This document shows positions 38,512-43,869 of a stretch of DNA of 64,000 nucleotides, in pieces (the stretch's first letter is position 1; the number at the start of each line of letters is the position of its first letter). A program made the translations under genes and the position numbers. This DNA comes from Candidatus Eremiobacteria bacterium (lineage in GTDB: Bacteria; Vulcanimicrobiota; Vulcanimicrobiia; Vulcanimicrobiales; Vulcanimicrobiaceae), in NCBI GenBank assembly GCA_963758295.1, contig CAVWUU010000004.1, positions 96,001-160,000 on the forward strand. The letters run 5' to 3'. A model generated the notes under the pieces. It saw only the letters and a list, made by a program, of their open reading frames with translations, had not been told where the DNA came from and ran no database searches.

Positions 38512-38587
38512 GGGGGCATAGCTCAGCTGGTAGAGCATCACGCTGGCAGCGTGAGGGTCAGGAGTTCGAGTCTCCTTGCCTCCACCA
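38512..38587 (+). tRNA. tRNA-Ala(GGC)
   Basis: GGGGGCA/TGCCTCC acceptor stem with G3:U70, GGC anticodon, encoded CCA. Confidence 0.95.
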
Positions 38588-38588
38588 T

Positions 38589-38661
38589 GGGGATGTAGCT
38601 CAGTTGGTAGAGCGCCTGCTTTGCAAGCAGGATGTCGCAGGTTCGATTCCTGTCATCTCCA
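38589..38661 (+). tRNA. tRNA-Ala(TGC)
   Basis: GGGGATG/CATCTCC acceptor stem with G3:U70, TGC anticodon. Confidence 0.95.
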
Positions 38662-38667
38662 GAAATT

Positions 38668-38804: not shown

Positions 38805-39620
38805 ATGATCGAGTTGCGGAGAATTGCAACTATGATTTCGCAATTGATGGCCGGCATTGCGGCTGCCGCGATCGGCACGTCGAATGCACAGGCAAATAAC
38901 GGTGCTTGTTGGCAGATGATCGGAAGCGCCGTTAAACGCAGCGCGCAAGCCGTACTTCCGAAGTTCATAAGTTACTCGGAACGCACCGAATTCTCGCTCA
39001 ATGGCAAACCCGCCAACACTTACAACTCGCAAATCACCTATCGTGACGACGGAATGGCGTACATCAACGATGATCGTTGGACGTACCCCATGGTTAGCGA
39101 GTCGATCGAGCCCGGTCCACCGGCACTCGGGCCGTACGGCGATAATCGAGCGGCGTGGCTTTCTACGGAAAGCGATGGCTCCTCGAACCTTCCCGTCATC
39201 GCGCACGTGTACGCGCATCGTACGCGCTCTTGCCGCGACGCTGGGCCGGCAACGATCGACAACCGGCTCGTCGAGCATCTAATCGTCGACGCGGAGAATC
39301 CGTCGGATGCCGGGTTGCGCGAAATCTGGATCGATCCGCAACTGGACATCGCGCGTTTGATCCTCCGCGCTCCTATGACGATGCTCGTACGCAATGCGCC
39401 GGTGCAAGATTTCGCAAATTTCCAAGTCGACGTGGAATTTGTCGATGGGCATGCGGTGGTGCGTCAAGTTTCGTGGGCCTATCACCAAAAGCACGACGGC
39501 GATTACGAGGATCTTGCGGGCAATTATGAATTCATGAATTACAGCTTTAGCCAGAGCGAGCCCCCCGGAACCTTTAGCGCCGTTACGGCATCAAACGGGT
39601 CGAACCGGTCTACCCGGTAG
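38805..39620 (+). CDS. Secreted hypothetical protein, tandem paralog A (start may be further downstream)
   Basis: Signal peptide; shares CWQ.I, YRDDG.AY, EPGPP.LGPY, LPVIAHV and GLR.IWIDPQ with the next gene. Confidence 0.75.
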   Translation: MIELRRIATMISQLMAGIAAAAIGTSNAQANNGACWQMIGSAVKRSAQAVLPKFISYSERTEFSLNGKPANTYNSQITYRDDGMAYINDDRWTYPMVSESIEPGPPALGPYGDNRAAWLSTESDGSSNLPVIAHVYAHRTRSCRDAGPATIDNRLVEHLIVDAENPSDAGLREIWIDPQLDIARLILRAPMTMLVRNAPVQDFANFQVDVEFVDGHAVVRQVSWAYHQKHDGDYEDLAGNYEFMNYSFSQSEPPGTFSAVTASNGSNRSTR

Positions 39621-39672: not shown

Positions 39673-40446
39673 ATGGCTCTGCGATGGTTCGGCACCCTCG
39701 TTGCTGCCGTTGTAGTTTTGGCTCCAACACCGGTTGCGCGCGCCGCAGACGATGGTTGTTGGCAACTGATCGATCGTGCGCTTCAACACAGCGCCGGGTC
39801 GCCTCATGCGCGGTTCATAACTTACGGCGAGCACTTCACCGTTTTCGCCGACGGCATCCCGTTGGAGAACATCGGCTCGACGATCGTCTATCGCGACGAC
39901 GGCCTGGCCTATGTTGCCGACGAGCGGTGGGTGCACCCTTTCCTCAGCCGGTTCCTCGAGCCGGGACCTCCGGTGCTTGGCCCGTACCGCGACTCACGGC
40001 CGGGATGGCTTGCGGCCGACACAATGGTTACGGCGTTACCGGTAATCGCGCACGTGCATGCGTATCCGAAAGAAACCTGTGCTGACGACGGGCCGGCGAC
40101 GGTCGACGGAAAACCATTCGTGCATTTGACGGTGGGCCATGAATTGAGCGAGCGTCCGGGGCTGCGTGATATTTGGATCGATCCGCAAGCGTACGACATC
40201 GGCCGTGTCGTAGTTCGTGGTCCGCTGCACTTTTACGTGCGTGACGGCTTCAAGGATGAACTGACGGATTACACCGTCGATTTGGAGCGCGTGGCCCAGT
40301 ACACCGTCGTGCGCCGTGTGACATGGCAGTATCGCGAGCGCGAATACAGTCAATGGACGGACCTCTCCGCCGAATACGATTTTCGCGACTACAATTTCAG
40401 CGACGTCCCTCCCCCGGGGACAATGCAAGCCGAACTTGCCATGTAG
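39673..40446 (+). CDS. Secreted hypothetical protein, tandem paralog B
   Basis: GGAGG SD; signal peptide ending ARA; same motifs as paralog A. Confidence 0.8.
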   Translation: MALRWFGTLVAAVVVLAPTPVARAADDGCWQLIDRALQHSAGSPHARFITYGEHFTVFADGIPLENIGSTIVYRDDGLAYVADERWVHPFLSRFLEPGPPVLGPYRDSRPGWLAADTMVTALPVIAHVHAYPKETCADDGPATVDGKPFVHLTVGHELSERPGLRDIWIDPQAYDIGRVVVRGPLHFYVRDGFKDELTDYTVDLERVAQYTVVRRVTWQYREREYSQWTDLSAEYDFRDYNFSDVPPPGTMQAELAM

Positions 40447-41803: not shown

Positions 41804-41880
41804 TGGTGGGCCATCCTGGGATCGAACCAGGGACCTCATGCTTATCAAGCATGCGCTCTAACCAGCTGAGCTAATGGCCC
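41804..41880 (-). tRNA. tRNA-Ile(GAT)
   Basis: Reverse complement GGGCCATTAGCTCAGCTGGTTAGAGC..TTGATAA..GGTTCGATCCC..TGGCCCACCA. Confidence 0.96.
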
Positions 41881-41945: not shown

Positions 41946-42197
41946 TTAGATGAGCTCGATGAATTTCTTGCAGATTTCATCCTCGTCTTTTAGGCGCGCA
42001 AGCATAAGCTGTTCCAGTGCCTGGCGCTCGCGCTCGAGTTCGGCTTGCTGTTCCATCTCCAGATCGAAGACTTGCCGTTGGGCGGCCAGTGCCGCTTCTT
42101 GAGTTTGCGTTCCGGCGTCGTGGTCGGGGACCGGCGCGGCAGGCTTTCCCTGGGGCGCACGCGGTGGGCGAGCGGCGGGTGAAGGGGCGGCGATCAT
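41946..42197 (-). CDS. Small helical protein, paralog of 42194-42520 (putative secretion rod/pilin-like subunit)
   Basis: Pro-rich N-terminus; C-terminal 50 aa are 23/50 identical, without gaps, to the upstream gene; ATGA overlap. Confidence 0.7.
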   Translation of the reverse strand: MIAAPSPAARPPRAPQGKPAAPVPDHDAGTQTQEAALAAQRQVFDLEMEQQAELERERQALEQLMLARLKDEDEICKKFIELI

Positions 42198-42520
42198 TCA
42201 CCGATGCTTTCGATAAATTTCTTGGTGATGCCGTCGTCTGCTTTGCGTTGCGCCATCTGCGCATCGCGCAGCGTATTGATCTCGCGCATGTTCTCGGCTT
42301 GTTGATTCATCGCTTCGTCGAAGACGGTCGACTGAAGATCGAGCTGCTGCTGACTCATCATTTCTTGCGCCATCAGGCCGGTTTGAAAGGCGTTGTTCTC
42401 GCCGAGCATGCCGGTGAGTGCGCCGTTACTGCCGCCGAGGATCGCGTTGGCGCCGCCGCTAACCAGGCCGCCGATGACGGCGGGTGCCGCCGCTTCTAGG
42501 ATCGGGGCGAGAAAAGCCAT
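42194..42520 (-). CDS. Small Gly/Ala/Gln/Met-rich helical protein (putative type III pilin/needle-like subunit)
   Basis: Strong AAGGAG SD; no Sec signal; amphipathic C-terminal helix ending KKFIESIGE. Confidence 0.72.
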   Translation of the reverse strand: MAFLAPILEAAAPAVIGGLVSGGANAILGGSNGALTGMLGENNAFQTGLMAQEMMSQQQLDLQSTVFDEAMNQQAENMREINTLRDAQMAQRKADDGITKKFIESIGE

Positions 42521-42581
42521 GACGTGGTTCTCCTTAGAAAAATGAAACGTGCGAGTCGATCACGCGCTTAGGTGCGCGCGG

Positions 42582-43238
42582 CTAGGGCTGGTCGCCGTCG
42601 ATATAGGCGCCGATGTCGTTTTGGGATTGCGAGTGGCCGGTTGAGTCGATGCCATTAGGGGGATGCCACGAGCAAGCGCCCGCGGCCGGCATCGATGGCA
42701 GTCCGGCACCGCTCTGAAGCAGCTGCGCGAGGGAAGTGAGGCCGTTTACGTTGCCCGCGGTTTCGGCTTGATCGGCACGGGCGTCTTCGGTGTGGCCGGT
42801 GATTTGCGCGTAGTGACGGAGGACCGAGTCAGCGTAACCTAGCGTCTGTCCGTCGCCCCAGGTCGTCCGAGTACCCGTTGCCCCCGGGCTGCCGGCATTA
42901 TAAGCGGAAAGCGCTCTACGGGCATCGCCGCCGTAGCGACTCAGAAGTCCCGAGAGCATCCCCGCGGCATAATCCGCGTTCTTGGCCGGGTCCATGGCAG
43001 CGGGCGAGCGAGCGAAATCGTGCCAACGGTCGTCAATTTGGAACAGCCCGCGGCCGTGCCCGCCGTCACCAACGATATTTGCGCCGCCGTTGCGGCCCGG
43101 GCCGCCGGTTTCCTGAGCGGCTACGGCGGCCAAGAGCGACGGGTCGAGCCCATGGCGCTGCGCGGCCGAAACGATCTGCGGCGCATAGTTTACACCTGAA
43201 CCCGTCAGGCGTTCGGTAAGGGAGCTTCCGACGTTCAT
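42582..43238 (-). CDS. Lytic transglycosylase (SLT domain), no signal peptide
   Basis: AAQRHGLDP.LLAAVAAQET, GRGLFQI, DP..N...AA.ML and ALSAYNAG motifs. ATG at 43238. Confidence 0.88.
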   Translation of the reverse strand: MNVGSSLTERLTGSGVNYAPQIVSAAQRHGLDPSLLAAVAAQETGGPGRNGGANIVGDGGHGRGLFQIDDRWHDFARSPAAMDPAKNADYAAGMLSGLLSRYGGDARRALSAYNAGSPGATGTRTTWGDGQTLGYADSVLRHYAQITGHTEDARADQAETAGNVNGLTSLAQLLQSGAGLPSMPAAGACSWHPPNGIDSTGHSQSQNDIGAYIDGDQP

Positions 43239-43266
43239 CGCTTCGGCAATCCCACCGCCTAGGCGT

Positions 43267-43295
43267 TTGACAAGGGACGGTCCTGGCTCTACAAT
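43267..43295 (+). promoter_or_regulatory. Sigma70 promoter of the yceD-rpmF-fab operon
   Basis: TTGACA-N17-TACAAT. Confidence 0.75.
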
Positions 43296-43362: not shown

Positions 43363-43869
43363 ATGACGCGTTCGCACAAGGTCGATATCAGTGGGTTGAT
43401 CGCCGGCGGCAGGCAAGTACTGCTGGTCGACGACCAGGTGCCCATCGAAAACTTCGAAGGCCTCGAGTTCCCGAAGCCGGCCAAAGTGCATCTCGAAATG
43501 CGGTACGTCGATCGACTGCTTCATATAGAAGGTGAGATCGACGCATCGCTGCGTGGCGAGTGCGATACGTGCTTGGAGACTTTCGATCGCGACGCGCACG
43601 TAGACGTCGACGAGCGACTGGATCCAAACGCCGATAAGGATGAAGATCCCTTCGGCGAAGGCAACGTGCTGACGGGCGACCGTCTCGACGTCGCCGATCT
43701 TGCACAGCAATTACTGCTGAGCGAACTTCCGATGGGGTTCCGCTGCAGCGAAGACTGTAAGGGCCTTTGCGGCGCTTGCGGAACGAATTTGAACGCGGGC
43801 ACATGCTCGTGCTCGCGTAATAACGGAGAGTCTAGTGGCAAACCTGAAGTGGAAGACGCCGCGCAGTAA
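43363..43869 (+). CDS. yceD: DUF177/YceD family protein
   Basis: ECDTCL and C.EDCKGLC..CG.NLN..C.C motifs; upstream of rpmF. Confidence 0.9.
   Translation: MTRSHKVDISGLIAGGRQVLLVDDQVPIENFEGLEFPKPAKVHLEMRYVDRLLHIEGEIDASLRGECDTCLETFDRDAHVDVDERLDPNADKDEDPFGEGNVLTGDRLDVADLAQQLLLSELPMGFRCSEDCKGLCGACGTNLNAGTCSCSRNNGESSGKPEVEDAAQ

Follow-up and report, generated by a model that had tools for sequence, protein, structure and literature searches.

A conserved locus for a signal-less lytic transglycosylase and two paralogous small proteins in a family of Eremiobacterota: a possible type III-linked wall-opening module

In a 64,000-nucleotide stretch of a Candidatus Eremiobacteria bacterium genome (assembly GCA_963758295.1, contig CAVWUU010000004.1, positions 96,001 to 160,000; hereafter the window, to which coordinates without a prefix refer), three co-oriented minus-strand genes at 41946-43238 lie between the promoter of a yceD-like gene and a tRNA-Ile gene, as had been described in an original prediction made from the sequence of the window. 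They encode a lytic transglycosylase of 218 aa with an SLT domain (PF01464; the protein is called SLT below; 42582-43238), a small helical protein of 108 aa (p108; 42194-42520) and its paralogue of 83 aa (p83; 41946-42197). As judged from profile matches and alignments, SLT is a signal-less family-1 lytic transglycosylase with an invariant putative catalytic glutamate, for which muralytic activity is predicted, and p108 and p83 constitute a new protein family whose N-terminus varies while the C-terminal helix, ∼50 aa long and charged, is near-invariant. The three genes, which are vertically inherited in one family of the Eremiobacterota/Vulcanimicrobiota, are interpreted here as a wall-opening module, and it is possible, although we propose it only tentatively, that the module is linked to type III export and that the small proteins are adaptor- or cap-like partners of the enzyme.

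The SLT domain was recognized by PF01464 (GH23, family-1) over residues 24-117 (E 3.5e-10; 39.9 bits against a cut-off of 21.3). In an alignment of 32 orthologues (A2), residues E43 and T44 are invariant within LLAAVAAQETGGP, the motif around E43 being AAQETGG, as are A112, Y113, N114 and G116 of an AYNxG sequence; we take these to be the catalytic glutamate of the E-S/T motif and the AYNxG motif downstream of it. The catalytic domain (residues 1-150; 42789-43238, minus strand) contains ∼60 invariant columns of A2, and the SLT hidden Markov model (HMM) spans residues 1-148 in at least 60 loci. The rest of the protein (residues 151-218; 42585-42788, minus strand; A2 columns 150-286) is a low-complexity tail of variable length with a conserved aromatic/acidic motif at its end. 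A hydrophobic N-terminus is present neither in the window protein, where the top 19-residue Kyte-Doolittle (KD) window reaches 0.79, nor in any of the 32 orthologues (median of the top window, 0.88), and the earlier description of an enzyme without a signal peptide and with a low-complexity tail is upheld. Among PHROGs, SLT best matches lytic tail proteins and internal virion proteins that contain an endolysin domain, and the IagB equivalog model NF011856 gives a weak match that spans the whole SLT domain (20.2 bits, cut-off 208). Histidine-rich runs (e.g. HAHHHHH) were observed in the SLT tail of genus g21 (A2 columns 225-240, loci L015-L024) and in one p83-like protein (P0190), within its N-terminal extension; they may bind metal or may simply represent low complexity.

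The C-termini of p108 and p83 align without gaps over 50 aa at 46% identity (E 8.5e-5 in a search of the whole genome) and the family HMMs cross-match (p83 HMM to the p108 open reading frame (ORF), 8.1e-11; p108 HMM to the p83 ORF, 1.4e-7), confirming the paralogy that had been proposed for this region; a family HMM search found no third copy in the genome, and none is present in the type III loci considered below. In p108 the shared domain corresponds to the last 56 residues (42197-42364, minus strand), with 16 invariant columns in an alignment of 46 sequences (A1) and the charged, amphipathic motif F-DE-M---E-MRE-N-LRD--MAQRKADD-ITKKFI--I, and the homologous domain of p83 (41949-42116, minus strand) matches the HMM of an alignment of the shared domain (A4) at 1.6e-23. 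The N-terminus of p108, a protein without cysteine, consists of an MxFLxPxLE motif, a Gly/Ala/Ser/Asn-rich stretch with many indels and a Gln-rich helix, and that of p83 is Pro/Arg-rich. The top KD window in the p108 family has a median of 1.41 and reaches at least 1.6 in 11 of 46 members (1.84 at residues 2-20 of the window protein), and in the p83 family the median is 0.27 and none of 28 members reaches 1.6. By KD windows and orthologue alignment, no Sec-type signal was detected in SLT, p108 or p83.

AlphaFold2 models predict two helices in p108 (residues 5-28 and 32-107), at a confidence too low for their packing to be read (pLDDT 61.6, pTM 0.22), and in p83 a disordered segment (residues 1-28) followed by a single 54-residue helix (29-82; pLDDT 76.8), so that the helical hairpin that had been expected is not what the p83 model suggests. 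Neither protein has an above-threshold match in Pfam, PHROGs, NCBIfam or the PDB, and a PDB profile search with A1 yielded only chance-level hits (E 0.36 or worse). Not one of the 128 p108 homologues found carries a family name. The A4 profile detected 231 cluster representatives among 1.84 billion proteins, and among the 150 matches listed the proteins are 34-274 aa long, with the domain C-terminal in nearly all. The ratio of nonsynonymous to synonymous substitution rates (dN/dS) of p108 is 0.02-0.12 regardless of whether a type III export gate is present, indicative of strong purifying selection, and the conserved charged helix would be the working part of both proteins.

That the enzyme and the small proteins form one module is supported by their synteny, by the coupling of p108 and p83, by a natural fusion and by their common lack of a Sec signal. 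The p83 start codon overlaps the p108 stop codon (ATGA, 42194-42197), from which the two genes are predicted to be translationally coupled, and p108 is preceded by a strong ribosome-binding site (AAGGAG, 42530-42535, minus strand, 9 nt ahead of the ATG) of a type, AGGAG, that is kept in the upstream alignment of relatives; both features had been noted previously and are present. The natural fusion, which supports joint action of the enzyme and the small protein better than any other evidence, is a 274-aa protein of one metagenomic lineage in which a tail-less SLT domain runs directly into p108-like sequence (cluster P0205, P0268-P0271; five members, 99-100% alike, on 7 contigs). Genera g4 and g21 have an additional minus-strand ORF of 93-95 aa, pX, between SLT and p108 (L069 2572-2849; L015 1876-2159), so that the description of a three-gene cassette is correct in gene order for the family but incomplete for these genera. 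The pX of g4 is paralogous to the SLT tail (64 aa aligned at 41% identity, E 1e-13), and its first residues, MSFLTPI, resemble the MAFLxPI of p108; the g21 pX is Gly-rich at its N-terminus and has an end that is acidic. Standing alone as pX and lost from the fusion, the SLT tail behaves in these comparisons as a separable module. A complex prediction for SLT and p108, with both chains given as alignments, scored 0.00 in two runs and counts neither way.

Homologues of p108 were found in 219 of the 301 genomes of a phylum sample, that is, in 191 of 206 genomes of the window's own family (f1), 3 of 3 in f2, 22 of 22 in f3, 2 of 3 in f11 and none in 17 other families. Within f1 the shared C-terminal domain, mostly in two copies, was detected in 305 of 348 genomes (176 of 186 of high quality), and the cassette is lost or split in about one-sixth of genomes. 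These tallies include the unpublished genomes G213, G264, G246, G233, G128, G248 and G238, and also G383, G373, G388, G385, G423, G386 and G400, likewise unpublished. The f11 matches (G008 and G015) were rejected as relatives, their tandem Gly/Gln-rich proteins lacking the conserved C-terminal motif and the match being compositional, and the small-protein family is confined to one class. In G015, a low-GC member of the phylum, three tandem Gly/Gln-rich ORFs of 101-123 aa (L042 9887-11287; G015:C34) come after genes that by eye are ExbB/ExbD/TonB-like, and their likeness to p108 is only compositional. The sources of the homologues name the Eremiobacterota (Baltobacteraceae, Aquilonibacter) and the ESM-Atlas names the phylum Vulcanimicrobiota; by the names attached to homologues, f1 is probably the Baltobacteraceae.

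The order SLT-p108-p83, with yceD divergent from SLT, occurs in every f1 locus with enough flanking sequence (29 loci, including L010 from the unpublished G213, and 66 loci in a wider scoring), and 20 of 26 f1 loci, and the f2 locus too, have the tRNA-Ile gene after p83. Since gene order is conserved across f1, the cassette is an old, vertically inherited core locus, and the original label "orphan" does not suit it. A mobile island at the tRNA gene was considered and rejected, as the order is conserved family-wide and the tRNA-Ile gene is itself part of it. In f2 (G055), p108 and a paralogue are encoded beside yceD-rpmF-fabH with no SLT gene at the locus, and this SLT query found no orthologue in the G055 genome. 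The f3 genomes G071 and G134 encode a lone 97-aa homologue that is divergent from an L31-like and then an RF1-like gene (identities read from translations), and have SLT-like genes elsewhere. Synteny of SLT with the small genes in relatives, which had been expected, therefore holds in f1 and fails in f2 and f3, and the small protein, which both of these families have without SLT and f3 has in a single copy, is therefore older than both its duplication and its link with the enzyme.

Export of the cassette proteins independently of Sec is inferred because they carry no Sec or Tat signal, yet the substrate of SLT lies outside the cytoplasmic membrane. The best candidate route would be a flagellar-type type III gate, of which the family has classical and reduced, motor-less versions. 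SLT may then cut peptidoglycan at the local site where a machine that spans the envelope passes through the wall, with the small helical proteins travelling with it as adaptors, caps or short scaffolds; its tail would act as a separable docking part, supplemented in some genera by the tail paralogue pX. Such an arrangement would be nearer to a split FlgJ/SltF or to EtgA-EscI than to a long needle or pilus.

The window's own genome contains a classical flagellar cluster ∼560 kb from the cassette, with FliK, FlgD, FlgE, MotAB, FliM, FliP, FliR, FlhB, FlhA and CheY- and CheA/CheW-type genes (names assigned from Pfam domains). It also has FliE and a FlgJ homologue, a 186-aa open frame that matches the rod-binding domain only; the frame is too short for a hydrolase domain and a rod-associated hydrolase, if any, must therefore be encoded separately. 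As the genome has both FliE and FlgJ, the possibility that the cassette replaces either was rejected. Relatives contain a second, reduced cluster (L058 6951-18803 and L059 21-839, from G136:C1 at ∼1.714-1.728 Mb; also L053-L057) with a FliF plus FliG segment, a rod-like, FlgE/F/G-like protein of 260 aa, FliP, FliR, FlhB and FlhA (∼637 bits), an MTHFR gene amid it and no motor or filament genes nearby. This cluster holds the only FHIPEP gene in three of five genomes probed and is present in the window's genus (G172). The expectation that an export core would lie elsewhere in the genome was thus correct for the classical cluster and, in relatives, for the reduced one. The one cultured relative, the non-pathogenic Vulcanimicrobium alpinus, is described as a diderm that has pili but neither flagella nor a flagellin gene (PMC9758169), and literature searches on Eremiobacterota/Baltobacterales yielded no paper on type III systems in the phylum.

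Co-occurrence of the cassette with an export apparatus, also anticipated, is seen in most genomes; FHIPEP is near-universal in the phylum sample (288 of 301 genomes) and its presence therefore says little. More can be drawn from the 15 high-quality f1 genomes without FHIPEP, three of which (G043, G081 and G407) were placed in the set by comparing two genome lists and 14 of which were inspected, G407 being left out. The cassette is damaged in seven, which counts for a type III link: the p83 C-terminus is replaced in G173, SLT has an in-frame stop in G195, p108 is frameshifted and the SLT tail in pieces in G107, p108 is in pieces and p83 has two stops in G192, 24 aa are deleted from p108 in G210, only a remnant with stops and without SLT survives in G089, and only an SLT fragment in the unpublished G238. 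The single stop in G195 (G195:C21, L072 ∼3230) falls at the conserved Trp of DDRWH in a gene that is otherwise well conserved. An initial count of damaged cassettes, 5 of 12 gate-less against 2 of 54 gate-positive genomes, was biased in that the 54 had been chosen from the best matches, and the contrast shrank when suspicious gate-positive genomes were inspected and a family-wide proxy was applied. What is left is a trend toward co-decay of gate and cassette, which neither proves nor refutes a link.

Several observations weigh against a type III-linked module. All three genes are intact in the other seven inspected FlhA-less genomes (G043, G081, G182, G184, G194, G124 and G267), 11 of the 219 cassette genomes in the phylum sample are without FlhA, and FliP is also absent from five of five FlhA-less genomes tested. 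Between two FlhA-less genomes the dN/dS of p108 is 0.02-0.08 (dS ∼0.85-1.3); this constraint over whole branches is not decisive, because in the locus tree the gate losses of genus g8 are recent and repeated. Damage is also found where FlhA is present, p108 being split by a prophage remnant in seven g4 genomes, the genes truncated in G154 and G163, and SLT split in G196 and G136, and by the family-wide proxy, which was regarded as unbiased, loss of the whole C-terminal domain is no more frequent in gate-less (1 of 15) than in gate-positive (9 of 171) high-quality genomes. No HMM ties the cassette to any type III component. The cassette never adjoins type III genes and its candidate promoter is sigma-70-like, back to back with that of yceD-rpmF, and in f2 and f3 the small protein occurs without SLT, so that its core role does not need this enzyme.

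The original prediction had proposed a filament, a rod and a wall-opening enzyme. In the specific form considered here, p108 would be a polymerising pilin or needle subunit, p83 an inner-rod-like protein and SLT the dedicated opener of a new type III appendage, perhaps built on the reduced cluster. This form derives some encouragement from the ESM-Atlas, where the nearest named clusters of p108 are HrpA-like (0.88) and HrpE-like (0.84) and those of p83 are HrpE (0.90) and HrpA-like (0.86), the top likenesses each having 183 of 256 features in common, followed by a needle (SctF) lead at 0.77-0.83 from clusters in which 13-17% of members carry the family. As the two queries are paralogues these leads count once, and likeness in language-model features is a lead, not a test. 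A variable N-terminus joined to a conserved C-terminal helix, a strong p108 ribosome-binding site suggestive of abundance, a reduced cluster in relatives with no motor or filament genes nearby and a cultured relative reported to have neither flagella nor a flagellin gene (PMC9758169) would also suit such an appendage. HMM searches gave a different picture, since PF09392 (SctF needle) matched neither p108 nor p83 at E up to 1, and with E values up to 10 admitted, PF09392, PF09589 (HrpA) and PF28047 (HrpE) matched no member of the family (46 scanned), nor did any rod model match. Furthermore, p83 is modelled as one continuous helix and not a hairpin, the type III loci hold no further paralogues, the cassette is intact and constrained in seven FlhA-less genomes, and the fusion buries the p108 N-terminus behind the enzyme. 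A needle or rod identity of p108 and p83 is accordingly not supported, and the appendage as a whole seems very improbable. A related proposal is that the reduced cluster, which is widespread in the family, secretes p108, p83 and, where present, pX as its axial or filament subunits, with SLT as its wall opener; motor and filament genes are missing from the surroundings of that cluster, and there are family genomes without classical flagellar genes. We would be surprised if the proposal proved correct. A type VII system finds no more encouragement: five of six genomes of the genus have one FtsK_SpoIIIE stretch each and the sixth has none, and WXG100 matched neither p108 and p83 nor any of the 46 family members.

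Two further explanations do not require a type III gate. In one, which we regard as doubtful, the cassette is an autonomous, Sec-independent release module comparable to holin-endolysin (type 10) or T7-like ejection proteins, in which a semi-hydrophobic, glycine-zipper-like N-terminus of p108 inserts in the membrane and releases SLT and p83 serves as soluble partner or regulator; the module may even derive from T7-like internal ejection proteins. The virion- and tail-associated PHROG matches of SLT are compatible with this, as are the hydrophobic start of window p108, the persistence of the cassette without a gate, and the recurrent weak matches of family members to T7 gp14 (PF24072; 2 of 46 p108-family members, best E 1.1e-3, below the gathering score; p83 at E 0.8, 10 bits against a cut-off of 27) and to PHROGs of phage pilot, ejection and internal virion proteins. 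Moreover, p83 has the C-terminal domain of p108 without the hydrophobic N-terminus, and some antiholins likewise share the domain of their holin without its hydrophobic N-terminus. However, the phage-family matches all lie under curated cut-offs and may reflect Gly/Gln-rich composition, the p108 N-terminus is rich in indels and in most of the 46 members does not reach a KD value of 1.6, the f3 homologue has only ∼15 hydrophobic residues, and the locus is a vertically inherited, housekeeping one with no other phage genes beside it. The other explanation, in our view unlikely, is that p108 and p83 are cytoplasmic coiled-coil housekeeping proteins, for example a regulator or scaffold for the neighbouring translation and lipid operons, which SLT joined only in f1. 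The occurrence of the small protein before its linkage to SLT (in f2 beside yceD-rpmF, in f3 alone and divergent from rpmE-prfA), the sigma-70-type promoter region common with yceD-rpmF and the tRNA-Ile gene directly downstream are in keeping with such a role, and the extreme conservation of charged residues would fit a conserved intracellular partner. A ribosomal-gene neighbourhood is nevertheless weak evidence, the SLT-p108 fusion and pX argue for a compartment or function common with the wall enzyme, and loss or splitting of the cassette in about one-sixth of genomes would be unusual for a core translation-linked factor.

To our knowledge, large envelope machines pass the wall by means of specialized lytic transglycosylases, and every one known is directed by a partner protein. 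EtgA-type enzymes carry a Sec signal, and SltF is Sec-exported. In the injectisome systems EtgA-EscI (and IagB and IpgF), where the inner rod recruits the enzyme, a small transglycosylase of SLT type works with a small helical protein that localizes it, as proposed for the type III-linked module. EtgA is brought to the assembling system to open the wall (PMC10880428). The cassette differs from these in lying outside a type III cluster, in lacking a Sec signal, in surviving without a gate and in having partners that share no sequence with SctI. A split FlgJ, represented by SltF in Rhodobacter and BB0259 in Borrelia, offers a second parallel: the host's own FlgJ has the rod-binding part only, a separate wall enzyme would be expected, and the joining of SLT and p108 in the fusion recalls the two-domain design of FlgJ, for which dual-domain and split forms, the latter a two-protein arrangement of rod-cap protein and separate hydrolase, are described (PMC8517470). 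The cassette differs in its distance from the FlgJ/FliE region (∼125 kb) and from flhA (560 kb), and it occurs in genomes with no rod-binding gene and the reduced cluster only (e.g. G045 and G036). Hrp pilins (HrpA, HrpE) and harpin-like substrates resemble the small proteins in being small, signal-less and Gly/Ala/Gln-rich, with a variable N-terminus and a conserved helical C-terminus; there is however no HMM similarity and no hrp cluster, phylum and habitat are different, and dependence on a gate is for p108 and p83 only a hypothesis. VirB1 consists of an SLT domain followed by a separable C-terminal part (VirB1*) that acts with pilus components, and the SLT tail of the cassette is likewise a separable and duplicable module, although VirB1 has a signal peptide and a virB operon, and no type IV genes were found near the cassette, the genome not having been searched for them. 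Finally, T7 gp14-gp16 and holin-endolysin (type 10) systems also combine a signal-less SLT enzyme with small Gly-rich helical or membrane-active proteins, from which the cassette is set apart by matches under cut-offs, the lack of a consistent transmembrane helix in KD windows and of a phage context, and vertical inheritance.

The yceD-like gene (43363-43869, plus strand), divergent from SLT, is followed by rpmF, fabH, fabD and fabG (all five names read from translations), and a back-to-back promoter region (43245-43295) separates the two directions. It contains the sigma-70 promoter of yceD (TTGACA-17-TACAAT, 43267-43295, plus strand; an 11/12 match) and, on the minus strand, a candidate SLT promoter with TTGTCA at 43268-43273, a 17-nt spacer and a weak -10 at 43245-43250, the pattern TTGTCA-17-(T/G)AT(A/G)G(A/G) being kept upstream of SLT in 25 of 27 upstream regions of relatives. 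No Shine-Dalgarno sequence precedes SLT, and its ATG is situated 6 nt past the candidate -10 in the window (43236-43273, minus strand) and 6-9 nt past it across relatives; on these two grounds the SLT message is probably leaderless. No TAAA-N15-GCCGATAA-like sigma-28 site was seen in the two intergenic regions when these were read by eye without a formal scan. The tRNA-Ile(GAT) gene (41804-41880, minus strand) has the same orientation as the cassette and lies 66 nt downstream of p83. A tRNA-Ala(GGC)/tRNA-Ala(TGC) pair (38512-38662, plus strand) is found 3 kb from it on the opposite strand; in genus g8 and family f2 (L045, L046, L067, L068 and L033) the pair comes after tRNA-Ile on the same strand, and the difference in placement points to a local inversion or rearrangement in the window's lineage. 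ORFs of 271 and 257 aa (38805-39620 and 39673-40446, plus strand), which are neighbours and paralogues of each other, have signal-peptide-like N-termini and common motifs, e.g. GACWQ/DGCWQ and IWIDPQ. Sequencing runs contain only small shares of the window (0.12 or less). Contigs from one RNA run contain the tRNA, yceD-rpmF and one p108 bin at a depth of ∼1 and not the rest of the cassette; they stem from relatives, and nothing therefore follows from them on cassette expression or habitat.

In G153 a prophage remnant of 13.4 kb is inserted at about codon 97 of p108 (L110, G153:C2:161000-176500, with junctions near L110 530 and 13918; also L047 and L101-L107). It carries a terminase fragment, a DnaD-like helix-turn-helix protein and a serine-recombinase zinc ribbon, and at its far side lie the 3′ part of p108 that was displaced and p83, which is intact. 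In G173 the end of p83 has been replaced by this junction sequence, p108 has a replaced C-terminus in seven g4 genomes, and a metagenomic hybrid ORF (P0259) joins a recombinase to a p108 remnant. It therefore seems that the sequence coding for the conserved C-terminal motif is used as a site of integration, and integration would be mediated by the serine recombinase.

The cassette combines a wall enzyme without an export signal with partners from a family that has no known relatives, and it raises the questions of how such an enzyme exits the cytoplasm and of what the reduced flagellar-type cluster exports. Were the filament interpretation true, the small proteins would belong to a surface structure that depends on type III export and has not been seen before, in a soil phylum remote from the injectisomes of the Proteobacteria, and if they are instead cytoplasmic, the finding shrinks to a new conserved protein family. 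If the interpretation as a type III-linked wall-opening module is correct, the cassette would represent a lineage-wide, partner-steered wall enzyme in a barely studied but globally abundant soil phylum.

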